63,983 nucleotides of DNA, filler included, from Collodictyon triciliatum (GCA_043381765.1; 6 parts of 6 records of this genome joined end to end with filler, not necessarily neighbours in it), one strand, 5' to 3'. Counted from the whole stretch's first letter, positions 8,200-59,879 are shown. Program-made: numbers and translations. The notes: a model not told the origin generated them from the letters alone.

Positions 8200-9148
8200 T
8201 CCTCCTAGGCGAATGCAATCGCTCCATGGATTCCATCAATATTTTTGAAGACGTCATTGTGTGTGTGTGTGTTCTTTTCATTTTCTTTTCATGTCTTTCT
8301 CCACTCTCCACCGAATTTGATATTCATTTTCTCTCTTCTGCAGCCTTTTTTTAAAAAAAGAAAAACAAAGTCTGATATCATCTTCAGTCACCTTTTCCCC
8401 ATCGGCAACATCATCATCTCCACTTTTTCCTCTTTTCTTTTTCCTTCTCAATTCTCTTCCTGGCTTCAAGAAAGAAAGAAAAAAGGAGAGAGAGAGAGAG
8501 AAAGAGAAAAAGAATCAGGATAATCATCGGTCCACGTGTCTGCTTTCACCCGGCTTATATCCTTAAACTTTTTTTTTTTTTTCAAGCTCGAGTCCAGAGC
8601 CTCAAAACATTGGATTGCATCCAATACAGTCGCCCAAATCATTCGGAGACGTATGGGATGTCGGGTGTGGGATGTGGGGTGTGGGGTGCGTGGTACCAGG
8701 CAAATTATACCATACGTGGTGCCCTCCGAACGCCGTCATTTTCTTTGCCCCGGCCTGTTTCGAATCTATCGGCGATCGAGTGGCGCGTGTCGATTCAATA
8801 TTTAGCCTGCATGCGAGAATAAGAGACAACAGCGCTGTTGGGCCTCCCGCCTTGAATACACAAACGTGCTTACTATTGGGAAATATAGTCCACGAAAGGA
8901 GCTTACGCATTTCCCTCTTTTCTTTTTGTATTATTGTAATGCTATATTTTTTTTTTATTCTTCCTTTCAATTATTGTAATGCTCTATTATTTATTATTAT
9001 TATTACTCTTTTTAATTTTCTAGATCGTGCCCAGTACACCAGTGGTATATTGCAACTACCGCGTTGTTTATCCTCCTCAATAATTACATTTGCTTTGAAC
9101 GGGCTGGCCAACCAGTCCGTCAAACCACTCTTCTAGAAGGACGGAGAA

Positions 9149-11861: not shown

Positions 11862-11961
11862 NNNNNNNNNNNNNNNNNNNNNNNNNNNNNNNNNNNNNNN
11901 NNNNNTTAATTAATTAANNNNNNNNNNNNNNNNNNNNNNNNNNNNNNNNNNNNNNNNNNNN
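11862..11961. other. Artificial contig-joining spacer (N44-TTAATTAATTAA-N44); same at 23817-23916, 35766-35865, 47713-47812, 59660-59759
   Basis: The same 100-nt linker with stops in all six frames recurs five times. Intervening contigs are 11855, 11849, 11847 and 11847 nt, i.e. sorted by length. Confidence 0.99.
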
Positions 11962-16157: not shown

Positions 16158-16250
16158 AGCGTTCTTTTATTCTGAACCAAAGCCAACATCTTCACCATCC
16201 TGCACAAAATTGAAAGGAAGAATAAAAAAAAAAAAGCGTTCTTTTATTCT
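16158..16250 (+). mobile_element. 5'-truncated non-LTR retroelement 3' end (family A) with poly(A) and 16-bp TSD
   Basis: AGCGTTCTTTTATTCT is duplicated at 16158-16173 and 16235-16250, flanking GAACCAAAGCC...CACCATCCTGCACAAAATTGAAAGGAAGAAT(A)n. The same tail occurs at about 35136 and 50383. Confidence 0.9.
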
Positions 16251-23656: not shown

Positions 23657-23916
23657 GTGAGTTTCTTTCCCTCTTCTTTTTCCCTCAAGAAAACAAGAGA
23701 GAAAACCCGCACTCACTCACTCACTCACTCACTCACTCACTCACTCACTCACTCACTCACTCACTCACTCACTCACTCACTCACTCACTCACTCACTCAC
23801 TCACTCACTCACTCACNNNNNNNNNNNNNNNNNNNNNNNNNNNNNNNNNNNNNNNNNNNNTTAATTAATTAANNNNNNNNNNNNNNNNNNNNNNNNNNNN
23901 NNNNNNNNNNNNNNNN

Positions 23917-32454: not shown

Positions 32455-35400
32455 AATTTTTCATGACGTTGTGAACTTTCTAATGAAATGGTAGTGTTTG
32501 TAAGCAAAAAAAAAAAAAAAATTGCAGTTGACGATGCCAGCGTATACCAATATCTGAAATATGGTAGGCAAAGCTCGATTAATAATTTACATCTTTGAAC
32601 TGGGTAGTTGTCAGCCCTTGGAGAATATTTGTATTCTTGGGATGCAAATCATATTCGCCGCTCCGCTTCTTGTTCAAATACTCGATGTAGTATCCTGAAT
32701 GAATTTTACATGAGTGTGTTTTTGGAAAGACAAACTTCAGAAGGAAAGCACTTGCTATTGATGGAGCGTATTTACTTCCTTGTACAGTTAATAAGGTCGA
32801 ATTTAAACCTGGATTTTTTGATATCTCTTCAAGTGGGTATTCATAACGCCTCATAATTTCGAACGTTTTTGCTGCATGGTGGCTTTCTAGAACCGAGACA
32901 TCATTGTAAACTCGAGCCAGCTCGGTTTGTGTGCTTATTTGGAATGCGTTGTTCTGAGTTTATATTTGGATAAGATGGTATTAAAAAAAATAAGGCTCAT
33001 AAATGTCACTCATTCGGACTCATAAATAAATAAACTTTCATTATTGTGTATATTTTGTCAATTAGAAAATCTATATTTTTTTTTGTTGATTTATATTATT
33101 TATGTGTATCTGTTTACTTTAAGGAAATAATAGTATGAAGAGTTTGCATGAATTGCCAACAAACCTGCCCCGGATGACCAACATCATGCGAAATGGCGGA
33201 CACCATCAAAGCAAGAACATCGAGTGGCTGCAAAATTTCTCTATAAATTTAACAATTTGTATTTGTTAACTTGCTTATTTTTTTATTTATTTGGTTGGTT
33301 GGTTGATGGCTTGACTAAATTGACAATTTTACATTCAAATATAAAATATATAAAAGAGTTTGGATGAAATGAATTGAAAAATGTGTATGCTCTATTGTGC
33401 AGGTATTAACCTAGCATTTGTCCGCGTTATATAATAATACACAGTTTGCGAAACGTCGACAGCATGAAAAAAGTTGTGATAAGGATTATCCCGGTATCTA
33501 TTTTATGCAAAACAAATAAAGAACATTACAGAAATCATATTAGATTAAGATTTAGCCATGAAAATAGTGGCACATGTTGAGAGGTGATGTTTCATAACGG
33601 AATTTTGTTATAAGATACGCAAGTTTATAAATAAAGTGTAGAAGAACTACTCCAGGGCCATATGATCGATGAAGTTGGACAGTGTGCTCGGCTTTATCAT
33701 GAAAGTTTTTAACAGGTCCAAATCCTAATTACGTATGTAACGAACCAAATGATTAAAAAAAAATAGAGAAACGACGAAACTCGGCAGATTAAAAAATATA
33801 CGTAATATCTATTTTTTATGAGATGATGAAACAAACCTCAAACATATAAATGATACATTTTTTAAGCTCATCGACACTCTTCGAGAACAAGTCGAAATGC
33901 TCGCTTCGTAAAACGGTCAAAATATCTACAGGAACTTGAGGCCGAATTTCCGTGCAAAACGACATAGAGAACAGCTTTCTTCTGCTTTTCATGAGGCTGT
34001 AGGACGTTCTATTGATGTATGTATTAAAAAAAAAAAAGGATCAAAATCGTATTCCATATTTTCTCACAGCTAATGTATTTTTTTTGTTTGATTGACTTAA
34101 AGTGACAGTTATGGGGTTCTACTGCTTAAAAATATTTATATAAAAAATTACTTGAGTGCTTGCATCGCTTTATTGGGCATCGGATTCCCTTTGAGACGCA
34201 CATACGTAATTTTCAATTTTGGTTTGTGAGGGAATTGCATGTTCACAAAAGGGGATACTTCAATTCATTAAAAAAAAAAAATGATGATGAGATGAAAAGA
34301 CCTTTCTCTACTGCAGGTTTTTCTAAGGAATCCTGATCAGGCTTTTCTGCATCTACTTTTGGTTGCACATCTGGCGACTTTACGGCCTCTTTTACATCAG
34401 ATTCCCTTGTTGGAGCAAAACAAGAAAGATATATCAATGTATGAAAGTTCGTTCGATAACTGCGTGCTTCGCATATGGAAATAATGGATATCACATACGT
34501 GGCTTTCGGTGTCCCTATATCGTCTATGACTTCAACATTTTTCTCTCTTTGATTGTTTCCCTCATCACCATTCCCTAGAACTTTTATCTCTTCATCTTTT
34601 TTCTCCCCTGAGTCGCTTGGGTTTGACTGGGCAGTTGTCTCTGTGCTCTGGTGAGCACTTCGCGCACTGAGTGGAGCAATCGCAATAGTTATTTCTGCAC
34701 CTTCAGACTGGTAGAATACAGGGAAAATAATTCCAAAATCATGATGAGCAATTATAAAACTCAACCATGATAATTTATACATGATATAACAAGAAAAAAT
34801 CGTGGCTTGAGGAAAATATGGCGACCTTCTTTGATATAAATGTAAATGTGGACGGTATGTTTCTTTCTACAAAAAGAACGGTCGTTTGCATGTGAGGAAC
34901 TAATCAGAACATGATTGGGTAAATACCTCATCCTTGTACTCCTCTTTGATATTTGGAAGGATTGCAGATGGCATTAGAGTGTTTGAGCCGAACTTTGCAA
35001 CTTCTGTGGGTATATCTATGGTGACCTATGTTATGGCATTAGTTGTACTCGCTTTTTAATTTATGGGAGGGTTAGGACAGATGGTGGCACAGTCGCATTA
35101 AATACCTCTGTTTCATCGGAAAGTCAAAACCTCCCACCATCTTGCACAAAATTGAAAGGAAGAATAAATAATAATAAAAACCTCTGTTTCATCTTCTTCA
35201 TCACTATCAGAATCAACAGTATTGTGGCCGGGGTTTACGAACTCAGTTGCGAGCCAGTTCTGCGTCATATGGTCCAATTCTGTGTCCTGGATGAAAATTA
35301 TTGAATGATAAGATGTAGATGTATGAAAATGCAGTGGAATATTATTGTTATTGTGCCATTCAAAAAGGGAGTGTACAGAACGAATTTAGAATATGTGAAC

Positions 35401-35765: not shown

Positions 35766-36120
35766 NNNNNNNNNNNNNNNNNNNNNNNNNNNNNNNNNNN
35801 NNNNNNNNNTTAATTAATTAANNNNNNNNNNNNNNNNNNNNNNNNNNNNNNNNNNNNNNNNNNNNCAAAAAAACAAAAAAACAAAAAAACAAAAAAACAA
35901 AAAACAAAAAACAAAAAACAAAAAACAAAAAACAAAAAACAAAAAACAAAAAACAAAAAACAAAAAACAAAAAACAAAAAAAACAAAAAACAAAAAACAA
36001 AGAAACTAAATGAAAACGAAAGCAAGACCTTATCTTTAATTTTTTCCCTCTCCTTTATTATGCGCTAGCATCTCCTGTCATTTCACTTATTTTTCGCAAC
36101 TATTAAACCACACCCTAGCC

Positions 36121-38835: not shown

Positions 38836-42416
<3,581 letters not shown>

Positions 42417-42430
42417 ACCAAAGACACGGC

Positions 42431-43330
42431 ATGAGCGGCACACCGCCCGCCGAACACGCGATCCTGCAGATCAGCGACGACGACAACGACGACGACAACG
42501 ACCGCGACCGCCTCAACGACGAGGACAGCACGGCAGGGGAGAGCAGCGAATGCCGGATCTGCCGGGAGGGCGGGGGCGCGGCGGGGCCGCTGGTGAGCGC
42601 GTGCGAGTGCCGGGGCAGCGTGGGGCGGGTGCATCTCGAGTGCCTGGGGCGGTGGCTGGAGCTGCGGCCGGTGGAGGCGGGTGCGGGTGCGGGTGCGGGT
42701 GCGGAGGGGCGGCCGCGGTGCGAGGTGTGCCGGGGGGCGTACCGGGTGAGCTACGCGCGTGCGCAGGGGCAGGGGCAGGGGCAGGGGCAGGGGCAGGCGT
42801 GGGCGTGGGCGAGGACCGCGGCCGGGTGGCGGGCGTGTGGGGAGGCTGCGTGCCTGGTGGCCACGGCCCCCGCCCTGCTGCTGCACGCGCGCCTCATCGA
42901 CCGCACAGACCCGCCCGCCCTGCCCACGCGCGTGCTGCTGGGCGTCCTGGCCTTTGCCGTCTTCCTGGCCCTGCCTGCCGCCCTGCGCTCCATCCACGCC
43001 CGCTGCCGCGCCGCCCACGCCGCCCCCGCCGCCCTCGTCCTCACGCTCCTCCCACAGACGCAGACGGAGGCGGAGGCGGAGGCGGTGACCCCCCCACACG
43101 CGCAGGCGCCGTTCCCCCCCGCACGCGCCGCCCTCGCGCTGCTGCTCCTCGCCGGCACCCTCGCCGCGTACATCTCCCTCTGGGCCGCCCTTGAGACCCG
43201 CGCCGCCCCCCACACCGCCGTCCCTGTCCTGCTCCTCGCCGCCGTCGCCGCCGCAGTCGTCTCCTGCCTCGCCGCCCTGCTCCTCCGCCTCGCTGCCCGC
43301 CGCACGACTCCCCCCGACGCCCTGAATTAA
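42431..43330 (+). CDS. MARCH-type RING-CH (RINGv) membrane E3 ligase, intronless, very GC-rich
   Basis: CRICREGGGAAGPLVSACECRGSVGRVHLECLGRW...RCEVCR (C4HC3), followed by about 4 hydrophobic segments. Confidence 0.9.
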   Translation: MSGTPPAEHAILQISDDDNDDDNDRDRLNDEDSTAGESSECRICREGGGAAGPLVSACECRGSVGRVHLECLGRWLELRPVEAGAGAGAGAEGRPRCEVCRGAYRVSYARAQGQGQGQGQGQAWAWARTAAGWRACGEAACLVATAPALLLHARLIDRTDPPALPTRVLLGVLAFAVFLALPAALRSIHARCRAAHAAPAALVLTLLPQTQTEAEAEAVTPPHAQAPFPPARAALALLLLAGTLAAYISLWAALETRAAPHTAVPVLLLAAVAAAVVSCLAALLLRLAARRTTPPDALN

Positions 43331-47710: not shown

Positions 47711-49369
47711 TTNNNNNNNNNNNNNNNNNNNNNNNNNNNNNNNNNNNNNNNNNNNNTTAATTAATTAANNNNNNNNNNNNNNNNNNNNNNNNNNNNNNNN
47801 NNNNNNNNNNNNGGATGTTTTAGTTGAGATAAAATAACACTGAACATTAAATTAGTCGCTCTGGTCGGTATTCGCCACGACATTAGGCAAGCGTGCGGCG
47901 TTGAGATAGCTTTTGTTGTTATGAGAACGTATTGGTGATAATATATAGATGTAAACGCCCGCGCTAATTGAGAGCAATCGTGATTTCTTTCCTTGAAAAT
48001 GTACATCTTGGTTGGTGATTGAATGATGGTGCAAGGTTGATGTCGACCGGTAAGTGGTTCAATTTGAAAATCGCCTCAATTTTTCCGTGGACTATTTTTT
48101 ATTTTTTACATCCTGACGACGTTCCATCAATCATTGCATCCAGAAAATAGACGAAACAATGAGGCTGGGATGGGGAACGTGATATGAGGATTTTACCATT
48201 GCGAGTTGCTTCGTTGTGATAATCCTAAAAGGTGTCTATATGCGGAAAATACGTGGAATCTGTTGCTTGAACAGTAATTATATTGGTAATCAGGATAATT
48301 ATGATAAAAATTAGCAACCAGTCGTAGCTTACTAATTATTAGTTCTCATATAACTTCTCTTGAATCTGCATAATGCCAGAAGTTGATAGACGTTATTTTC
48401 TATTGGGTCACTTGGCGTCACTTTGAATCGTCATCTGCCACAATTATTTTACAACTTCAGCCACAAAGTGCTGGAGATTTATATATCGTTTGACATGTAC
48501 GCGCACAGAAATGAGCGCCTCGAGGGTCTTTCAATATAGGAAGAAAAAAATTACAAAGGACAAAGTGTCACTTTTTTAAATCAATATTCACAATTACATG
48601 GTATTTTCCAAGAATTCATGAATTTTTGCAAAGAAAAAACAAAAAGATTTTCATTGAAGACCTATTTTTTGCTTAGCTTTTTGTCAAAATATTTTTTCTT
48701 TCATACATATTGAGAAAATTAGTTTCCCTTCGTTTCTTGGAGAAAATAATCACATCTTTTCATTCGAGATTGTAGAGCTTTGGGGAAGAACAACTATATA
48801 AATACCCTCCATTCATTTTTATCTTCAAGAAATAACAGAGGATGAAAAAATGAAATAATTTCTTGACCCTCAGAAACCCACATGCCTGAGCATTTATTTT
48901 GATAAGCTTCGAGGATGTGAATTCAACTTCGTAATTAAAATTGTGGCAGACAAGTTAAAAATTTTTTATTGGGAACAATATTTTTCAGTTTTTTGAAAGA
49001 ATCGCGCACCTGCAAAAATATTCTCGACCACTATTTGATTAACTATTGAAGCAGAGGTTTTTTTTATCAACGCTAAGCTGAAATTCTGGGTTGGATGAAT
49101 GAAATGTAGTGTAATCAACGATGCAACCAGTGAAAGGGAAAACCAAACAAGCGCATAAAACATAAAAAAACATAAAAAACATAAAAAACATAAAAAAACA
49201 TAAAAAAACATAAAAAACATAAAAAACATAAAAAACATAAAAAACATAAAAAACATAAAAAAACATAAAAAAACATAAAAAACATAAAAAGCAGAAAAAC
49301 AGAAAAAAACAGAAAAACAGAAAATAAATTTAAATTTTTGCCATATTCACGTTCAAATAAAAGGAAAAG

Positions 49370-50038: not shown

Positions 50039-50444
50039 AAGGCGGTTGATTTGGATAGCGCGCACATACTCGCGCAAAGCAAGACTCAACAACCAGCCAC
50101 CCATTCCTGATAACAGGCTGAATGATATCATACAAACATCTTTCCTCAACGGCTTTCTTCGCCACTTGCACGTTCCCTACTACTCAGACCCTGTGGGAAG
50201 TAAGATGTGGAAAGGATCTGATAAGGAGATTAAACATCGCCTTGTCTCACTCATGCAAGCACAAGACCCAGGCTACAGGCCAAACCGTAGGATGCAATTC
50301 CTGATTACCGACTACTTCTCCGCCATCCGGACACCAAGTAGCGTCCATGCAAGCGATGGCTAGCGAACCAAAGCAAAAAACGCACCATCTCGCACAAAAT
50401 TGAAAGGATGAATAATAATAATAAAAAAAGAGGGCGATTGATTT
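50039..50444 (+). mobile_element. 5'-truncated family A LINE retaining the ORF2 C-terminus (ORF to 50363), 3' UTR and A-rich tail
   Basis: Family A tail (GAACCAAAGC...CACCATCTCGCACAAAATTGAAAGGATGAATAATAAT) immediately after the TAG at 50363; imperfect TSD AAGGCGGTTGATTT / AGGGCGATTGATTT (12/14). The peptide aligns with the LINE at 57.3-58.0 kb. Confidence 0.85.
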
Positions 50445-50785
50445 AATCACCGTGACAAATAGTTTCGTAAATTAAAATCTCATCGATTTAATAAAATATA
50501 TTAAAATCAATAAACGTTAATAATTAGAGAAAATCATGATAATTTCCTCTGGTGGAAAAAAGGCTGCAGATTACCCAAATATCCAAAAAAATCTCTTTAA
50601 ATGTACATTAATACAGTCATATATAAAATCATCGACAATATCCTCACAAATCTCATAATGGGTCGATTTGCCAGAACCATATGCATTACAGACTCGCCTA
50701 TAGATAAACTATGAAAGCAAGCCTCCATATATCAGCTACTTCTAAAGCACCGCATCCTATTTTCAAATATCTCTAATATAATATA

Positions 50786-50958
50786 TTATCAACCCTTTCA
50801 GATTCATAGTGATGAACCATGAATCCAGCTTCCGTACCCTGCTGGCCTGCACCCTTATTCGACACGTATTCCTGCTTTCAACCAAGTCGCATACAACTTC
50901 GTCGGACTGTAAAATATCTAAAACCCCTTCCTTCTCTTGAATCGAATAAAGGAAAAAA
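50786..50958 (+). mobile_element. Retroelement 3' fragment (family B) ending TTGAATCGAATAAAGG(A)n
   Basis: Similar inverted copy at 51702-51875; same terminal motif as the LINE tail at 57276-57302. Confidence 0.75.
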
Positions 50959-51701
50959 TCTCCAAAATATATACGTGCAGACATCCGATCAGGTCATTAC
51001 ATGAATTAACCCAATCTCACATTAAATATAGTAAAAGAGCAAATATTTTATTTCAAATTCTGCCACAGCTACACCCAGGCGATTAGCATATGAGTGGTCT
51101 GCATGATCAATTCATTATCCATGATATTTGGATGTGTCATCTACGACCCCATGGGCTAAAATATGGCATTGTCACTCTTTCTTCAACAATTTTTCATTAA
51201 TGTTGATGAAATTAAGCACCATAATGTTATAATGAATGAGATAATTGTAAGTTAAAAATTAAAAGACCTTTAGTTATCATCAATCACACACAAAGGTAAA
51301 ATTTTAAGCAAAAATTTTTTATTAAATATATTGGAGTTGCACCGATTTGCACCAACAAAATTCATTGCGTATGTTTAATTTATAAAAAACCGTAATATAA
51401 AAAAATAGCCTCATTTTTAAACCGCAAAATACCATTTTCTTAAAGATAATTTCTTCTCTGCCCCGGTAACTAATTATTAAATGAGGGTAAGAAACTGAGG
51501 CTAACCTCTGTCTTCTTGAAAAAATCAAAATTTATTATAATTCGTGATCTCCTCTTATGAGGTCTCTTTAATGTATTAGTCTTACCTAAGTCATTTTCAT
51601 CTATTTCTTTGCACATAAATCCCCTACATCGAATTTTTGCAATAAATTAATTATAACAGTTGAAATGAGATGATGTGAGATTGGTTCTCTGAGAAAAGCA
51701 C

Positions 51702-51875
51702 TTTTTTGCTTTATTTGATTCAAGGGAAGAAAGGGGTTTAAATATTATACAGTACAACGTAATTGCTTGTGTCTTTTTTAAAAGCATGAATGCGTGTCGA
51801 ATAAGGGTGCAGGCCAGCAGGGTACGGAATCTGGATTCATGGTTCATTACTATGAACCTGAGAGGGTTGAGAATA
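51702..51875 (-). mobile_element. Second family B retroelement 3' fragment (may extend to about 51955)
   Basis: The reverse complement shares GAACCATGAATCCAG.TTCCGTACCCTGCTGGCCTGCACCCTTATTCGACACG and ends TTGAATCAAATAAAGC(A)6. Confidence 0.75.
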
Positions 51876-53110
51876 ATTAAAACTCTAGAGAGCTGCCACT
51901 ACCAGAAGCCCTGACCTGGATTTGATCAGAGGCCAAATGTCCCCACGGAGGCAAATGATTAAAAACATACTTTAGGTTTTAAAAAGTTTTTCAATAATAA
52001 GTACTTCTTTCGCATTTGTTACAGTTTGAATATATAATTGTAATTCTGATTTATTTATATATTTTTTATGACGGTTTTTACTTAATATTCCTTAAATCAT
52101 TTTAAATAAAATGAAACACTCGCTTACTTTTGCATGGCTGTTATGAATCAATTATGAATAGCCATTTTTTAACCCATATAAAATATCCTTTCTCAGTCTT
52201 ATTATATCCAATACTAAAGAACACTGACATCTTTAAAAATGACACATTTTACCGCGATTTTTAGTATATTTCATTTAAATTGGACGAAATAACTGTATTC
52301 AATTGAATTTTTGAATTTTTCCCGCCCATTTAAAGTAAGATTCTATTCTCTATGTAACGGTTTTTTTAGTGCCCAACAGCTAAATGAACTAATTGTAGCC
52401 TTAGCTAAGTTTTGAAAAGCTAAAGCAGCTAATTTTGTTATTTTTTAGTGTAATGCGGAGCTGGTTCAATTTTATATTTAAGCAGATAGACTTTCCCCCT
52501 TTTTAAAGGTTTATTTAAGTATAAATGCTTTTCAACGTTTATAAACTGGCAAGATCTATTTTGATATAAAAACTTCATTTTTGGTCTATTTAAAGAGCTG
52601 CAATATCGTGTAGATATTTGTCCTTTTCATTTTGGTCAAAAAAGCATAATCAAAAGACCAAATTTATAGAACGTTTCTAACAATCACCCAATAATATCGC
52701 TCTATTGATTGCCTACAGAATCATTGAATATTAATGCCAAATATTAAAATTCTTATATTATTTGCAATAAGTGAGTTTAAAACTGCACTGCGATAATTTT
52801 CTCATTCACCAGTACATATCTACTACCTAAGAGCGATTTATCAATGATACACAGAAAATGGGCTAATTTTTGAAAAATGAAAAGCCACTAAAGGATGTAA
52901 TTTTATGGTCATATAGCCAAATTTTAAATATTATGAGAACACAATCACATATCTGCACAGATTATCTATAGGGAAAATTTGCCTTGGTTGACTAGTCTTT
53001 GTTTGCATAGATACCACACAATTCAAAACATGTTGTTGTCTCTATTGCATCGATCATAATAATGAAACAAGTTACATTTTCTTGAATTATGTTTTATTTT
53101 AATAATAGAA

Positions 53111-56100
53111 ATGGACAATCGCATCTCGGAAAAGCCTAGGGTGTCCATAGCATCTAATGAAACTTCTGATCCTAAAGGACCGAACAATAATGCTTGGGCT
53201 GAGGTAGTTATTGTACAATATCATATAAATTTAGTATTTTAAATAATTTCAATATTTAAATTTTATTTTGTGTTAAATCAACAAATAAAATCAATATTTT
53301 AATATTTTAATTAATGAAACGGACATTATTGTGATCGTATTCCACTCAAAACTTCTTAGGAAGATATAAGAAGCACCATCAATCGCACCATATCACTGAG
53401 GAATTCAATCTTGCTACTAACTTTCTTTTCAGTCTTATCTGTTGCATTAGTCAGCGTTATTCCGTCTTATACATTCGGTTTTTCGGTAATAAATACTATT
53501 TATGATAAATAATAGTATTTTTAATTAAGTGAACATTATCCATCAATCGTTTTTTCTAAAACAGAAATATCTTTTATCTCTGATCTGAAACAGTCTGTAA
53601 ATGATTTATCGAATCAACTGCAAGTGCAGGTTAATTTTTAATAGAAACTTTGTAATATTGTTTTAATAGTACATTACATGAAATCAAGATATATGTACTT
53701 CCTAGTAAATAAGTTAATGAATTTTGACAGACCGTAGAACGCATAAAACAAGAAATTCAGGGATCCTTGGATACACCTCATGAAATTCTTCGTTCACTAG
53801 AGGCTCAAATTTTTCAGCTAAAAATGGAAATGACACAAATGAAGTGCAACAACTTCACTATACGATTATTAACCTTTGGATTAGTTGAGGTACATTGATT
53901 TTTTTTAGAAAATTATTTTTCATTCACTAATATTATCATCAGAAAGCGAAATACATGTCCCAGGCAATGATTGGATTTGAAGATGGTGGAGTCATATGTA
54001 ATAATTTATTTTCTAAAGAGCCATACGAATTTCATTCTGCAGTATTATTTGACTTTTGGTCGTTAATTATATCTATTTTAAGGTATGGTCAAAGACAAAG
54101 GTCCCATTTCATTTGGCTGCGCATCTCCTGAGACCAACTATGAACTTAGAGATGGATATGTTACTAGAGATACAATAATGAGTCCATTCAACGAAATTAA
54201 GATACACAACATCAAACTGGGATACAATTCCACTGCGAGACCGTGGTATTATATAAATAAAAATAATTTAGAGGTCATAGATGGATTTTTTCTTCAAAAA
54301 ATATTTTTATTATAAAAACAAATAGGTACAGTTTAGCTAAAATCAGGAAAGGACCAACATGGACTCATGTGCATACGGCAGTTGTAGTGGGTGGTGGAGT
54401 TCTGAATGTTCTTGCTTCTAGACCGATATTTGGTGACTCGAATGAAAGTAATTCCAAATATTGAGATATATTAATTGATAATTCATGTTTATAATTTCTA
54501 TTTGATAACATCACACCATAAATCAATTTAATTTAAATTTCATTCGATTACATTTTGGAACGCCCTTGGGTTATTAGCCAAAGTTGTGGCTGTTGTTGGC
54601 CTTGGGAACAATCTGAACCTTATTCAAGAAAAATTGAAGAGCATTAGAATAAGCGAGAATGGAGAAGCATATATTCTTCAAAAAGTTTGTTCTGTATATA
54701 AGACAGTCAATATTAAATTACCACAATTAAACATGTTTCATTAAATTTAGTTTTTGTTATTTTAATTCAAAGGATGGAAAAATCATTGCAAATACTTTGG
54801 GAGTCCCTAATTTTGATAAAGATGTCAAAATGGTTCATTATAAGGATTCCAAAAACCAACTCATGATAAAGTCCGCAGATGTAATATAGTTTTTTTATAA
54901 ACATAATCACCTCTTGATGGCAACTTATAAACGTGATTAAATAAAACTGTAGAAGCTGAAAAAATTGCCAGATGCAAGTTTCGAAGCTATTCAAGGAATA
55001 AAAACGTTTTCCATTTACAAAGGAGACGAAGAATATTTGACATTTGCTACAACATTGGTCGATCCAAGGGGAGGGATAGAATGGGTACATAATCAAATAA
55101 ATATTTGCACAATATAAACTGAATTATATATACCCATGTTTGAAAACTAATCCTCAGCATGTATTAATAGACAGTTGTCATTCTGATTCCTCGCAGTGAT
55201 ATGTTCGCAAAGGTAGATAGAATGATTGTTCTATCATCCTCTCTCACTGCCGCTCTGTTCGTTGTGACACTAATTATCACTATGGTGGCTTCATCTTACA
55301 TTAGCAGGTAGTTCAATAATAATGGTATGACTCTCATTACATAAATTGATATCTACAAAATACTATTAATTTTCTATTGAAATCTATAAATTTTAAATAA
55401 CAGACCACTTAACGTTGTTGCTGACGCCATGCAAAACATCTCCAAGCTCAACTTTGAAAAAAAAACCTCGGTTATTAGACCTATAATTTATTAAAAAAAT
55501 GCTTCCTCACTCCTAAAATATTTTAAAATTTTTTTCTAATTTTATTTTAGAGTGACTCCAGTTCTACACTTCGTGAGATTCGAATGATTCAATCGTCGTT
55601 CCAGGTTCTAAAGAATGAATTTAACTTTCCTGAGACTTTTTTGGTGCAAAAAAAAATATCTTGGCGCTTATTATCATTCCACTATGCAGGTAATGGACAC
55701 AGCCCTTCAGTCGTTCGGAAAATTCGTCCCCATGGCGGTTGTAAAGAGAATTGTCGCTGACTCAAGTAATCAAGGTCAATTATTCCTGGACCGCAGGAAT
55801 GTAACTGTCATGTTCACTGGTAATATGAATCTAAGTGGCATTTTATATATCAAAGAGATTTTAAAATACTTCAAATATTGATAATAAACGTCTTCATTTC
55901 TACTTAAAGTATGGAAAAAAGAATCACCAAGACAATATCTTACCGAAATATACTATAGATATCGAAGGGTTCACTACTTTGTCGGAATCCATATCTGCCG
56001 AAGCCTTAGTAGAAATTCTAGCAGATTACCTTGAAGAAGTCTCCAGCATCATCATAGCTACAGGAGGAACTGTTGTAGACTTTATAGGCGACGCTGTTGT

Positions 56101-57130
56101 GGTAATTTAAGAAAACAGAGTTTATCGTCACACCCATTTCTCGCGACTAATCCATTTTTTATTTTCAAAATAAAGGCAATATGGAATGCTCCCACTGATG
56201 TTCCTGACCATGCTCTCTGTGCATGCATATGCGCAGTACGATATACCGTAAGTTCATTCAGATTGAATTTTTGTAACCTTGTCAATAATTTTTGGAATGA
56301 AATTTCTGTCAATCGACTTTGTTACATATAAATATGTATTTTCATATGAGCAGCGCGTGATGGGAGAGCTGAACAGCAAGTGGATATCAAAGAGACTTGT
56401 CAAGGACCCTCTCAACGTGCGAATTGGGATACACACAGGTCCCGTGTATGCTGGAAATATCGGGTCATCCAAGCGCATGAAGTACGACTCTATTGGAGAC
56501 ACAATGAACCTGGCGTCGAGGTGCAGATATATTCAATTTTCTCTGTTGGTCGCCCTCACCTATCTTAGTTTTATTATTCAATTATTGCAATATGACAGTT
56601 CAGTCTCAATAGTGTCGAGCAACATGGTTAATCAGAAAAATAGTAAAATATGGTTTTTTTTTCAGGCTCGAGGGTTTAAACAAGCGTTACAAAACAAATG
56701 TCATCATAAGCGAGGAGACGCGCAATTCTATTCAACCTCGCATGATATCTAGACCTCTTGAATACGTGGTGGTGAAAGGAAAGTATGTCAAATACAAATA
56801 CACTCATTATTCGAGTGATTGCTTTAAATCATATGAGATTGATAAAAAAAAATATGAATTATTTGCAGAACAAGCCGAACTCAAATCCACGAATTGCTTG
56901 CCGATACTCAAGAAAGTGGAGAGCATGATGTCAGCAAAGCAAATTCCAAACAAAGCGCATCGATGCCATTCCAACACTTTACCCAGATGACCAGCCCGCA
57001 GAAAAATGATGCCATTAGCCATCTGAGCGACTACTGCGACACCAACCCGTCTGACAGACCAATGAGGGTGCTGATGGGTATAGTGAGCGCACCGAATTAC
57101 GATGGTGTGACCATTTTGGACGAGAAGTGA
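53111..57130 (+). CDS. Receptor-type class III nucleotidyl cyclase (TM-Cache-TM-HAMP-cyclase), many short exons
   Basis: Cache-like YNSTARPWY...GPTWTHV and ENGEAYIL; HAMP ISRPLNVVADAMQNI...REIRMIQSSF; cyclase motifs VTVMFT|DIEGFTTLSE, DFIGDA, VRIGIHTGPVYAGNIGS, YDSIGDTMNLASR|LEGLNK, VKGK and DGVTILDEK*. Confidence 0.94.
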
Positions 57131-57275
57131 GACACTTGAAATCACACCAGTCCAGATAGGCACATCATGGATGATATCTGAGACTTACATCCAGTAAAAG
57201 TTGGATAACATTTACAACCAAGCAAGCTGAAATAAAAGCTATGAATCTAAAAGAGCTTTTTCCATTCGACGGGTG

Positions 57276-58028
57276 TTTTTTTTTTTCCTTTATTCGATTC
57301 AAAGTGCAGCGGGGTTATGCCATACAAAGGGGCGGGATGGGAGCGCATGGGAGAGAGCAAACGTGATAGGAGAAGACACTACCGTGGAGACCAGCACCGG
57401 AAAGAAGTCAGTGATAGCGAGTTGGTCGGGTGGGCGGCTCAAATGGCTGATTGGTTGCGTGGGCAGCAGGGGTTGGATGTGCTGTGGGAGATATCACACG
57501 ACACATTCCCACATCTCTCTTCGTTTGCGGTCAGAGTAGCGAAGAATGCGGGCGTGTTTCAGCAGACTGTTCAGGAAGCTGTATTGCACGAGGCTCTCAA
57601 GCCTGGATACATGGATATCTCGTTCGGGTGAATCATTAGAGTGAGAGAATGCACGCACACTCCATAAGGACCACAGCATATGTCCCCTTGTGACTGTCCA
57701 GAGTATTCTAGAGTCGTGGGTCATTTGCTATTGTGGGCCAAACAGGATGTCAGACGCGCTGAGTCGGTTGGGAGCATAATCAAGCTCAGAGAGCATCTTG
57801 TGGGTATACTCTGTCACTTTTTGAGCAAGAGAGCACTTCACAAATGTGTGTTCGATAGATTCATCTCCACTATGGCACATGGTGCATTCTGGAGAGGTCG
57901 TTGCTGCTTGGACTACACGCGCACCTATCCACAGCTCTCTGTTGGAGATATTGAGCAGTAGGGCGCGGTGTTTCGGGAGTAGCCGAGATATGTTTGACAT
58001 GACACAAGCTCGACACAACCCACCCTGC
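57276..58028 (-). mobile_element. Decayed L1/Tx1-type non-LTR retrotransposon 3' portion (zf-RVT + C-terminus)
   Basis: One frame with two in-frame stops (57728, 57494): ECTMCHSGDESIEHTFVKC (CCHC zinc knuckle), LWSLWSVR; final TGA at 57301-57299 inside TTGAATCGAATAAAGG, then (A)11. Confidence 0.9.
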
Positions 58029-58075: not shown

Positions 58076-59311
58076 ATGCTTCCCGCCTGCTTTGCCCTTT
58101 TGATCGCAGCCACATGTCTTTTCGCCCAGGGGATCGGGGGACAAGAATGGACATACCTCACAACAGTGAGCCCCACCACAAGCGTGAGGAACTCGCAGTT
58201 TGGTCGCCGTCTCAGCACCTCGGAGAACCACGCCCTCTTCGGCGTCCCAGCATTCGCAACAGGTGGAGTCCTTTCGTCGGGTATTTGCTTTATCTACGAA
58301 CAGACAGGCAGGACCTGGTCTCTCCAGCAAACGGTCAGCAGCGAACAGCCGCGCTCAAACGAAGGCTTCGGGTCCAGTGTTGCGGTTCATCAGACCACGT
58401 TATTAGTCGGTGCTCCTGGAACATCAGCGATTGCCGGAACAGCCTATATCTTTGTGCTTTCCCAGGCCGATTCATCGTGGGTACATGCCACCAACTTGAC
58501 ACTATCTGGAAACAGTGCCGGCTTCCGATTCGGCCTCGCAGTCGCCTTATGCGATGACTACGCATTGGTTTCGGCTCCCTATCAAACAGTGATGGGCAAA
58601 GAGAATTCTGGTGCGCTTTATGTCTACATTCGTGTTCTAGCCACTCAGAGAGGGAAGATTCACGGCCAGCGCCTGAATTATTCCTGGGTTTACGAGGCGA
58701 TGTTGGTGCCACCCACTCCTGCCGCAAACCAATACACGGGATTCTCTGTGGCTGCCTCAAATGATTATGCGGCTGGTTCTTCGCCTTATGCAAGCTCCAA
58801 AGGTGTTGTATACGTATTTTCCAACCCAAAAGTACGCGGAGTACAATGGAGCTTAATGGCTCAAGTTACCGCTTCAAATATTGCAGACTCTTACTTTGGA
58901 GCCAGTATATCAATGGCCTTGCCTTATTTAATTTCATCAGCCGATTACGATAATGGCGGTGCCCTTGAGGCAGGGGCTGTGTATCTATTTAAGCTGGATC
59001 AAACTAATACGACGTGGGTTCAGATTAGTAAGATAATATCCCCAAGTCCTGGGTTCGACTTTCGTTTTGGAATTGCGCTCTCGGCATCTACAATTCCAAA
59101 AACTATAATGATTGCGGATACCGAGTCAAACATCTTTACATTCGTCCTTGATGGGGACACTCCAGTTTTCCATGATCGAAAGAACGGGTCGAATGTGGCC
59201 GTCAGTCCGTCATCCAGGCATCGGATTAGAGGAAATTATGCCTCTTATTCTGGGTCAGGACAGGCTGACTTTGATTACGATGCTTCTCTCTTTTCGAGTA
59301 GGTTTTTCTAA
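58076..59311 (+). CDS. Secreted or surface FG-GAP repeat (integrin-alpha-like beta-propeller) protein; may continue by splicing past the contig end
   Basis: Signal peptide, then about 6 repeats of FG.S(V/L)A....L.V(G/S)AP...G..Y(V/I)F (e.g. FGSSVAVHQTTLLVGAP...AGTAYIF; FGLAVALCDDYALVSAP...SGALYVY). Confidence 0.88.
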   Translation: MLPACFALLIAATCLFAQGIGGQEWTYLTTVSPTTSVRNSQFGRRLSTSENHALFGVPAFATGGVLSSGICFIYEQTGRTWSLQQTVSSEQPRSNEGFGSSVAVHQTTLLVGAPGTSAIAGTAYIFVLSQADSSWVHATNLTLSGNSAGFRFGLAVALCDDYALVSAPYQTVMGKENSGALYVYIRVLATQRGKIHGQRLNYSWVYEAMLVPPTPAANQYTGFSVAASNDYAAGSSPYASSKGVVYVFSNPKVRGVQWSLMAQVTASNIADSYFGASISMALPYLISSADYDNGGALEAGAVYLFKLDQTNTTWVQISKIISPSPGFDFRFGIALSASTIPKTIMIADTESNIFTFVLDGDTPVFHDRKNGSNVAVSPSSRHRIRGNYASYSGSGQADFDYDASLFSSRFF

Positions 59312-59879
59312 ATGCTGAAAGAAAACCATTTTCGTTTTATTTATATTTACCATATGATAGCTAATCCAAAATACTATTACATTCAAATTCTAGACTCTAA
59401 TATACCCAGCATGAGCCCACCTTCCAGATCGCGTAAGTTTCTTATCTTTCTCTTATCTTTATTTCTTTCTGTCCTTAATCTCTTCTTTTCTCTCTTCTTT
59501 TCTCTCTTCTTTTCTCTCTTCTTTTCTCTCTTCTTTTCTCTCTTCTTTTCTCTCTTCTTTTCTCTCTTCTTTTCTCTCTTCTTTTCTCTCTTCTTTTCTC
59601 TCTTCTTTTCTCTCTTCTTTTCTCTCTTCTTTTCTCTCTTCTTTTCTCTCTTCTTTTCTNNNNNNNNNNNNNNNNNNNNNNNNNNNNNNNNNNNNNNNNN
59701 NNNTTAATTAATTAANNNNNNNNNNNNNNNNNNNNNNNNNNNNNNNNNNNNNNNNNNNNATTGTTCCTGTAATTTGGTGCTTACGGATTTTATCTGTTTT
59801 TTGTCACATAATTTCCATTTTGCGCGGATAATCTGAATATTCAGCCGTATTTAACGGATGTGCTCCAAGTATAACCGAA

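Follow-up and report, generated by a model that had tools for sequence, protein, structure and literature searches.

Near the ends of their ORFs, two divergent LINE copies in Collodictyon triciliatum (GCA_043381765.1) encode a short peptide that resembles the PIP box through which proteins dock to PCNA. Both lie in a 63,983-nt stretch of DNA, hereafter the window, in which six parts of the genome assembly are joined with filler. Do these elements end in a conserved PIP-type motif, and would such a motif engage the host sliding clamp?

Two LINE insertions and their relatives

Copies A and B are dead, 5′-truncated insertions, each from one of two related families of non-LTR (LINE) retrotransposons (Table 1). 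The hallmarks of such elements are present: A-rich or poly(A) 3′ ends, variable 5′ truncation, target-site duplications and multiple copies. As a preliminary description had proposed, the two ORFs align as protein, with 14 of 32 residues identical in the block that it singled out and 27 identities over 95 aligned columns (28%) between the two translations (blastp E = 7e-10). The same homology is recovered by tblastn against the whole window at E = 2.9e-7, and the two 3′ UTRs give no mutual blastn match.

The reading frame of copy A is free of stops from 50007 to the family stop codon. Its translation is 81-83% identical to the database copies P0001 and P0013, the latter of which extends upstream into a CCHC zinc knuckle (C-x2-C...H-x4-C pattern) ahead of an A-type tail. 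Protein homology begins at 50049, within the last bases of the left target-site duplication; this microhomology allows the exact 5′ junction to be placed only to within a few bases. Duplications of 12-15 bp surround four family A insertions, which range in size from ~26 to 380 bp.

Copy B occupies the minus-strand frame 58027-57299 and retains a zf-RVT domain, which is also detected in the relatives P0007 (4.3e-8) and P0012 (7.1e-9). Its 3′ UTR contains AATAAA, and the poly(A) lies at 57286-57276. Three lesions of its own are seen: an in-frame TAG, an in-frame TGA and the loss of 2 bp between 57391 and 57390, which places the family B stop codon out of frame. The TGA had been considered as a possible true terminus ahead of the motif, and this is ruled out by the arginine found there in 4/4 other B-family sequences. 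The metagenome locus L001 is 94.4% identical to copy B across 718 nt and, given flanks that differ beyond the poly(A), is an independent B-family insertion. Inspection by eye revealed no target-site duplication around copy B. A third decayed fragment of the same group, at 50574-50777, covers the region upstream of the zinc knuckle, contains stops and ends short of the tail.

A profile of the region shared by A and B points to a restricted family: just 6 of 1,835,955,588 proteins matched at E <= 0.001, and later searches added 16 proteins and L001, for a total of 22 database proteins. Scanning metagenome contigs with P0018 returned L001 and four distant zf-RVT LINE loci (L002-L005); another such scan matched 146 stretches, none of which was confirmed. 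Five freshwater metagenome or metatranscriptome runs contained only 0.05-0.07 of the sampled words. No RT fragment was found in the window by tblastn with the RT-bearing ORFs of L003 and L005, and a search for longer relatives gave none; the upstream walk from P0015 residues 1-160 led to P0012 only, and none of the copies from outside the window extends as far as the RT. A PDB profile search with 14 family sequences returned zero chains at E <= 10, human ORF2p included. Foldseek against the PDB with a low-confidence model found just generic helical bundles (E >= 0.14), and the ESM Atlas yielded zf-RVT clusters only.

Table 1. Positions of LINE features and of the host PIP box in the window
Feature	Position	Strand	Remarks
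Copy A, 5′-truncated family A 3′ end	50053-50432	+	ORF end, ~70 nt 3′ UTR, A-rich AATAAT/poly(A) tail
Left target-site duplication, copy A	50041-50052	+	12 bp; one base mismatched vs right copy
Right target-site duplication, copy A	50433-50444	+	
PIP-type motif QFLITDYF, copy A	50295-50318	+	14 residues ahead of stop; Arg at +4
Family A ORF stop codon TAG	50361-50363	+	P0005 terminates at the identical position
Very short family A 3′ end	35118-35179	+	14-bp target-site duplication 35104-35117 / 35180-35193
Very short family A 3′ end	16174-16235	+	15-bp target-site duplication 16159-16173 / 16236-16250
Family A 3′ tip, ~26 bp	8944-8969	-	14-bp target-site duplication 8930-8943 / 8970-8983
Third decayed LINE fragment, same group	50574-50777	+	tblastn to P0022 residues 147-216, 50% identity, E = 3e-8
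Copy B, 5′-truncated decayed family B 3′ end	57276-57997	-	CCHC region, C-terminal domain, tail, ~95 nt 3′ UTR
zf-RVT (CCHC zinc knuckle), copy B	57815-57985	-	Pfam PF13966, E = 1.5e-7, 32.4 bits (cut-off 27.5); residues 15-71 of translation from 58027
In-frame TAG, lesion of copy B	57728-57730	-	Tyr in 3/3 other B-family sequences covering the site (P0010, P0022, L001)
In-frame TGA, lesion of copy B, not the family stop	57494-57496	-	Arg in 4/4 others (P0004, P0016, P0017, L001); CGA read directly in L001
PIP-type motif QLAITDFF, copy B	57401-57424	-	Residues identical in L001
Family B stop codon TAG	57379-57381	-	Out of frame in copy B; DNA alignment with L001
C-terminal PIP box QPSITTFF of host gene, probably Pol delta subunit POLD3/Cdc27	42384-42407	+	Followed by KK and stop (QPSITTFFKK-stop 42384-42416); not part of the LINEs

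Conservation and position of the terminal motif

The residues and positions first given for the two motifs are correct, and the motif extends well beyond this pair. The census comprised the 20 sequences that reach the motif position (both window copies, 17/22 database proteins and L001), and the pattern Q..[ILM]..[FY][FY] is intact in 16 of them, a proportion biased towards intact tails because ORF callers report open frames only. These sequences fall into four lineages, which may be sub-families of one genome since the outside copies, all from short contigs (<= ~1.5 kb), may share the window's species. Of the four exceptions, P0020 has a single F-to-L change and the rest are damaged by indels: P0001 is one residue short, and P0006 and P0015 lose frame just before the motif. 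Elsewhere in the 22 proteins, the strict pattern is absent. As a small outgroup control, none of the four distant loci L002-L005 encodes a PIP-like motif towards the end of its ORF. Position 5 is T in all 16 intact motifs. Position 6 is D in 14 and N in the other two, P0003 and P0013 (a lineage and a family A copy).

With one representative per lineage, invariant columns amount to 8/36 in the domain, 0/28 in the linker, 4/8 in the motif (with 2 more conservative) and 0/5 after it, in agreement with the initial remark that the linker is not conserved. The spacing also stands as first described: Q is the 29th residue past the conserved Trp (MW) in both A and B. The distance is 29 residues in the third lineage too and 32 in the fourth. 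The motif is placed 7-14 residues from the C-terminus. The true stop is read at the DNA level in copy A and L001, and the family B proteins P0004, P0016 and P0017, together with L001, all terminate 7 residues past the motif. Database proteins end at their family's common residue in 8/8 cases for family C and 3/3 for family B.

Copies A and B differ synonymously at the I, T and F of the motif, and copy B and L001 do so at Q and D. Such codon differences indicate that selection acts on the protein, and the motif is shown to be under protein-level purifying selection in the active lineages. Judged by sequence, the conserved C-terminal PIP-type motif is real. The claim that this LINE group ends its ORF, putatively the RT-encoding one, with a canonical PIP-type motif is likewise supported at that level.

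Proposed PCNA docking and competing explanations

The residues of the motif suggest what it may do. Its core I-T-D-[F/Y]-F is that of the PL peptide, a high-affinity PCNA ligand with a QKKITDYF core and a Ki of 0.136 µM, and 1/8 positions differ from the engineered optimum p21-08 (QTSITDFF), as these peptides are described in PMC4103810 and PMC4615156. By its residues, the LINE motif fits a rare, high-affinity class of PIP boxes known as "TD". This suggests that it may dock PCNA, and that the elements may hitch onto host replication or repair machinery.

A plausible mechanism can be outlined from the order of the protein. The CCHC zinc knuckle is followed by a ~140-residue helical domain, a poorly conserved linker of ~28-31 residues and the terminal Q-x-x-I-T-[D/N]-[F/Y]-F motif, 7-14 residues before the C-terminus. 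The motif would serve as a PIP box on a flexible tether, entering the hydrophobic pocket and the Q-pocket of a PCNA protomer. That PCNA may be located at a replication fork close by, or at the 3′ primer terminus that target-primed reverse transcription creates. Docking would then either hold the reverse transcriptase on the primer-template or bring PCNA-bound repair factors to finish the insertion. A host Pol delta subunit probably has a C-terminal tail of like kind. Taken as a whole, dead LINE copies bearing a conserved tail motif that acts as a tethered PIP box on PCNA are the best explanation, and we consider it probably correct.

PIP-like motifs are able to bind partners other than PCNA, and conservation by itself names no partner. 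The tail could instead be kept for another protein that reads peptides of this kind (a translesion or mismatch-repair factor, for instance), or as a hydrophobic helix that packs on its own C-terminal domain or within the RNA-protein particle. The AlphaFold2 model of P0007 does draw residues 326-336 as a helix, but with pLDDT below 50 and no confident packing. Block-mean pLDDT is ~54-89 over residues 183-320 and <50 for residues 321-345, which include the motif; this is weak evidence of disorder because the model is poor overall (mean pLDDT 49.2, 14-row alignment). Precedent for a structural role comes from human L1, in which the 'PIP box' is described as a helix packed on palm and fingers (PMC10830420) and PCNA is now proposed to bind ORF2p elsewhere (PMC7617806). 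Against a purely structural or non-PCNA role, the preceding linker has 0/28 invariant columns, as expected of a tethered peptide, and each of the eight positions agrees with the PCNA consensus, among them the rare TD pair that PMC3973308 links to high PCNA affinity. We regard a non-PCNA role as unlikely.

A further possibility is that the motif binds PCNA chiefly as a PIP degron, so that a protein loaded on chromatin-bound PCNA would be ubiquitylated by a CRL4-Cdt2-type ligase and destroyed. Retrotransposition would thereby be held down, whether by the host or by the element itself. The degron signature is given in PMC3973308 as Q-x-x-hydrophobic-T-D-aromatic-aromatic-x-x-x-R/K. T-D is found in 14/16 intact motifs, and +4 is Arg in 2/3 intact family A tails; the eight family C tails (7 intact plus P0020) have Arg there in 6 and His in 2. 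However, +4 is basic in 0/5 family B tails (V, P, A, A, A) and is P in the single lineage D tail. A degron is therefore not common to the whole group, and it is improbable that this is the main role of the motif.

Coincidence, or neutral retention of a functionless peptide among young close copies, has to be weighed as well, since short motifs arise by chance and the sequences may all derive from one or few genomes. Translated in all six frames, the window contains 14 matches to the pattern, many of them in T-rich, Phe-rich translations. When the tails are shuffled with their composition preserved, though, it appears in just 26 to 334 per 100,000 trials (<=0.33% per tail). Across the shared region the lineages have 25-57% identity to P0007 of family C, and the position of the motif relative to Trp is maintained. 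Invariant columns are concentrated in the motif and lacking in the linker and post-motif residues that flank it, which is hard to reconcile with neutral retention. We consider this explanation very unlikely.

Some LINEs recognise their own 3′ ends, and the motif lies within ~45-70 nt of the stop codon, but conservation of an RNA or DNA sequence, such as a 3′-end recognition signal for the reverse transcriptase, is scarcely credible given that A and B share 16/24 motif bases (counted by hand), use different codons at 3/5 identical motif residues and have 3′ UTRs without a blastn match.

Relation to known clamp-binding proteins

The closest functional comparison for a PCNA-docking LINE tail is human L1 ORF2p. 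The preliminary description took as its premise that ORF2p binds PCNA through a PIP box between the endonuclease and RT domains. The association itself is upheld: ORF2p associates with PCNA in a manner dependent on its endonuclease and RT activities, and L1 retrotransposition requires PCNA (PMC10830420, PMC5821460, PMC5478143). The internal PIP box as the binding site, given as residues 404-419 or 407-415, is disputed; PMC7617806 argues for binding via a 'PUB' motif in the wrist domain and against residues 407-415, and PMC10830420 presents the box as a helix packed against palm and fingers. In both systems, then, a non-LTR reverse transcriptase would engage the host sliding clamp, as is predicted from the motif for the present LINEs. 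They differ in that the human site is either internal or a folded wrist surface, whereas the LINE motif is at the extreme C-terminus, beyond an unconserved linker that follows the zinc knuckle. Moreover, the human box appears to be a buried structural helix whose binding role is questioned in PMC7617806, whereas the LINE motif reads as a textbook TD-type PIP box.

Among other mobile elements, Pogo transposase has a PIP box (PMC5371812), and the I-T-D-Y-F core of family A is the same as that of the Pogo-derived PL peptide (PMC5371812, PMC4615156, PMC4103810). Pogo, Tigger and Lemi1 are, however, cut-and-paste DNA transposases unrelated to reverse transcriptases, and the review PMC5371812 describes the functional relevance of their PIP motifs as itself unclear. 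The C-terminal LINE motif is a variation on a known theme, exemplified by human L1 ORF2p-PCNA and Pogo transposase, with a function that is predicted from its sequence. Full-text searches of the main text of openly accessible papers turned up no non-LTR retrotransposon described as having a C-terminal PIP box.

In architecture, the tail most resembles that of the Pol delta subunit POLD3/p66/Cdc27/Pol32, in which a long, poorly conserved tether leads to Q-x-S/x-I-T-x-F-F within a few residues of the C-terminus. The window itself was said to contain a POLD3 ending in the same type of motif. The C-terminal QPSITTFFKK-stop is indeed present, but the POLD3 label is weakly supported: Pfam CDC27 (PF09507) scores 17.8 bits (E = 0.0024) on the exon 39829-40047, under the 24.5-bit cut-off, and the large middle and last exons have zero Pfam matches. 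A human p66 peptide of the type seen in this POLD3-like sequence is listed in PMC4103810 (Table 1). It belongs to a host replication protein rather than to a mobile element, and it has no TD pair and a low affinity (Ki 28.9 µM, PMC4103810), whereas the LINE motifs have TD like the tighter-binding p21 and PL peptides. The PIP degrons of CRL4-Cdt2 substrates (p21, Cdt1, Set8) share this TD pair and, for the most part in families A and C, the +4 Arg; the basic +4 is missing in families B and D.

These comparisons can be combined into a broader reading, which we put forward tentatively and consider possible rather than probable. PCNA tethering would be generally required for target-primed reverse transcription by such LINEs, with lineages using interchangeable modules for the purpose: a folded surface in mammalian L1, and here, in a protist-like lineage, a high-affinity PIP tail of the TD type at the C-terminus, in imitation of the host Pol delta subunit, so that the RT replaces the polymerase on the clamp at the nicked target. 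The +4 Arg in A and C would make the tail a PCNA-dependent degron that caps activity.

How human L1 engages PCNA is in dispute: the internal PIP box appears to be a buried structural helix (PMC10830420), and a 'PUB' surface has been proposed instead (PMC7617806). An unambiguous, conserved tail PIP box in a LINE group would argue, on independent evolutionary grounds, that clamp recruitment is important for this kind of transposition, and it would offer a simple test system consisting of a peptide, host PCNA and point mutants. Retrotransposons would also join the Pogo-like and bacterial IS transposases (PMC5371812) among the mobile elements that converge on clamp-binding tails.

LINE 3′ ends in the window

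The translations of copies A and B, the 5′-truncated 3′ ends of a family A and a family B LINE, align over 95 columns with 27 identities (blastp E = 7e-10), and the protein match has E = 2.9e-7 against the whole window (tblastn). Judged by these alignments, the two translations are homologous. Both conserve a Met-Trp pair, and the Gln of a PIP-type (PCNA-docking) motif is the 29th residue beyond it in each. Given this homology and spacing, the preliminary description of two related C-termini with a PIP box 29 residues after a Trp is correct as written, coordinates included.

The loci are LINE 3′ ends, as insertions that are truncated to differing extents at the 5′ end, carry A-rich tails and are flanked by target-site duplications bear the signature of target-primed reverse transcription. 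Copy B contains a Pfam zf-RVT zinc knuckle (E = 1.5e-7, exceeding the cut-off), and its 3′ terminus is AATAAA plus poly(A); in copy A the terminal stretch is an AATAAT/A-rich tail. Three further family A insertions in the window retain only their final 26-62 bp and the tail. In the database protein P0013 a CCHC knuckle precedes an A-type tail, which places family A among the zf-RVT LINEs as well. No reverse-transcriptase domain is found in the window by tblastn with the RT-bearing ORFs of two metagenome loci, L003 and L005. A third LINE fragment of the same group lies 130 bp 3′ of copy A and corresponds to the part of the protein that precedes the zinc knuckle.

Coordinates of the LINE copies and neighbouring features
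Feature	Position	Strand	Basis or remark
Copy A open frame	50007 to TAG at 50361-50363	+	translation
Copy A PIP-type motif QFLITDYF	50295-50318	+	translation
Copy A target-site duplication	50041-50052 and 50433-50444		12 bp, one mismatch
Copy B single frame	58027 to 57299	-	translation; broken by TAG and TGA
Copy B in-frame TAG	57730-57728	-	translation
Copy B in-frame TGA	57496-57494	-	translation
Copy B PIP-type motif QLAITDFF	57424-57401	-	translation
Family A short insertion	35118-35179	+	14-15 bp clean duplication
Family A short insertion	16174-16235	+	14-15 bp clean duplication
Family A short insertion	8944-8969	-	14-15 bp clean duplication
Third LINE fragment, same group	50574-50777	+	decayed, stops inside; database protein P0022 residues 147-216, 50% identity, E = 3e-8
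Intron-free gene, probable secreted FG-GAP-repeat protein	58076-59311	+	Pfam FG-GAP_2 E = 2.3e-28, four stretches
Very long poly-Asn, Asn/Asp-rich tracts	39022-39390, 40790-40900	+	in and just before POLD3-like gene
GC-rich, Ala/Arg/Gly-rich ORF	~42650-43330		RING-CH-like Cys pattern; after POLD3-like gene
Exon-like ORFs, putative class III adenylate/guanylate cyclase catalytic domain	55865-56750	+	by eye; between LINE copies
Paired 44-base N runs, 12 bases apart	11862-11961, 23817-23916, 35766-35865, 47713-47812, 59660-59759		

The 5′ end of copy B lies ~80 bp upstream of the first Met of the FG-GAP gene, in the opposite orientation. Base composition shifts abruptly between adjacent genes around the POLD3-like gene. 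The paired N runs recur with a period of ~11,950 bases, and those at 23817 and 59660 fall inside microsatellites according to the translations; no biological feature would be spaced so regularly, and the pattern resembles a masking, assembly or processing artefact.

Relatives and conservation of the C-terminal motif

A profile of the shared region retrieves only six sequences at E ≤ 0.001 from 1,835,955,588 representative proteins, all of them short ORFs. A word-indexed search from one of the six yields eight proteins, and 90%-identity clusters add 10 more. The database relatives total 22 proteins, from ENA and JGI contigs of at most ~1.5 kb. A metagenome scan provides one family B DNA locus, L001, which is 94.4% identical to copy B across 718 nt with different flanks beyond the poly(A), together with four distant zf-RVT LINEs (L002-L005). 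L001 (1-953) is decayed too, with a frame shift between an upstream ORF (1-609) and a downstream ORF (552-953). The sequences fall into lineages A (window copy, P0001, P0005, P0013), B (window copy, P0004, P0016, P0017 and L001, also P0010 and P0022, which end short of the tail), C (P0002, P0006, P0007, P0009, P0014, P0018-P0021) and D (P0003, P0015). Members of lineages A, B and D have 23-57% identity with P0007, a family C protein, across the shared region.

The TGA at 57494, raised in the preliminary description as a potential true stop, is not one. Arg occupies this position in all four other B sequences that cover it (P0004, P0016, P0017 and L001, where CGA lies opposite the TGA in the DNA alignment), and all four stay in frame through the motif. 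The upstream TAG likewise corresponds to Tyr in 3/3 other B sequences (P0010, P0022, L001). Alignment with L001 also reveals a 2-bp deletion between 57391 and 57390, which puts the real family B stop (TAG, 57381-57379) out of frame in copy B; intact B copies encode a protein with seven residues beyond the motif.

Twenty sequences reach the motif position: both window copies, 17 of the 22 proteins and L001 (P0008, P0010, P0011, P0012 and P0022 end before it). The strict pattern is present in 16 of these, upholding conservation across copies, in a census where intact tails are over-represented since ORF callers output open frames only. Outside the motif position, none of the 22 proteins contains this pattern. 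The exceptions among the 20 are an F to L change in P0020, a residue absent within the motif in P0001, and loss of frame immediately ahead of it in P0006 and P0015, the kinds of damage expected of dead copies. With one representative for each of the four lineages, invariant columns number 8/36 in the domain before the Trp, 0/28 in the linker, which was rightly described as unconserved, 4/8 in the motif (Q, I, T and the last F, with D/N and F/Y among the variable positions) and 0/5 thereafter. The stop follows the motif by seven residues in B and D, nine in C and 14 in A; it is seen directly in copy A and L001, and identical protein ends within families (8/8 in C, 3/3 in B) imply the same stop. 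The LINE protein is shown to carry a conserved terminal PIP-type peptide on an unconserved linker.

None of the four distant zf-RVT LINEs, a small control, has a PIP-like motif near its ORF end, and their ORFs end within ~85-115 residues of the CCHC knuckle. From this comparison, the long helical domain and PIP tail appear specific to the LINE group studied here. The AlphaFold2 model of P0007 (14-row alignment) is poor overall, with a mean pLDDT of 49.2. Residues 183-320 are helical (block-mean pLDDT ~54-89), and the motif-bearing tail (residues 321-345) scores below 50, which is weakly consistent with a peptide on a flexible tether. Foldseek finds nothing in the PDB below E = 0.14 for this model, and no PDB chain, not even that of human ORF2p, is matched by the family sequence profile at E ≤ 10.

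Candidate PCNA docking and its alternatives

The family A motif is the same at 6/8 positions, I-T-D-Y-F among them, as the Pogo-ligase PL peptide, which is reported to bind PCNA with a Ki of 0.136 uM, and a single position separates family C QTAITDFF from p21-08, an engineered optimum (PMC4103810, PMC4615156). The POLD3-like gene of the window ends in QPSITTFFKK, resembling the peptide of human POLD3, p66 (PMC4103810). The QPSITTFF tail noted earlier for a host POLD3 is present; the gene's identity has as its sole basis a sub-threshold Pfam CDC27 match (17.8 bits, 24.5-bit cut-off).

We infer from the sequences that the tail probably serves PCNA docking. The peptide would occupy the PCNA hydrophobic pocket and Q-pocket. 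PCNA itself would either sit at a fork close by or have been loaded onto the primer end that target-primed reverse transcription creates. Such binding could then retain the reverse transcriptase or recruit PCNA-bound repair factors. Conservation of the motif for another partner or an intramolecular role is a distinctly less probable reading. That the motif is mainly a degron is more doubtful still. The TD pair is described as conferring high-affinity PCNA binding; few PCNA partners carry one, and it is characteristic of PIP degrons. Such degrons additionally require R/K at +4, the fourth residue past the motif (PMC3973308). This residue is Arg in two of three intact family A tails and in six of eight family C tails (His in the other two), and is basic in 0/5 family B and 0/1 family D tails, so a degron is possible for some sub-families and is not a group feature. 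Chance is very unlikely. When each tail is shuffled separately, Q..[ILM]..[FY][FY] arises in 26 to 334 per 100,000 trials; across all six frames of the window it has 14 matches, many of them within T-rich, Phe-rich translations. A signal in the RNA or DNA is the least credible explanation, as copies A and B use different codons for three of five identical motif residues and copy B and L001 differ synonymously at Q and D, which places the constraint on protein.

PCNA is reported to co-purify with human L1 ORF2p and to be required for retrotransposition, and in S phase ORF2p is reported to encounter both PCNA and MCM proteins (PMC10830420, PMC5821460, PMC5478143). The preliminary description took human ORF2p to bind through an internal PIP box; the partnership holds, and recent work shifts the site to a wrist-domain surface (PMC7617806). 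Pogo-type transposases offer the other mobile-element precedent for PIP boxes (PMC5371812). The finding is real, with better support than its first author could know, and is a variant of a known theme, mobile-element clamp-binding motifs and the LINE-PCNA partnership, rather than a novel type of system. Moving the human site to the wrist domain, as that recent work proposes, makes a LINE whose tail is an unambiguous canonical PIP box a more interesting comparison.
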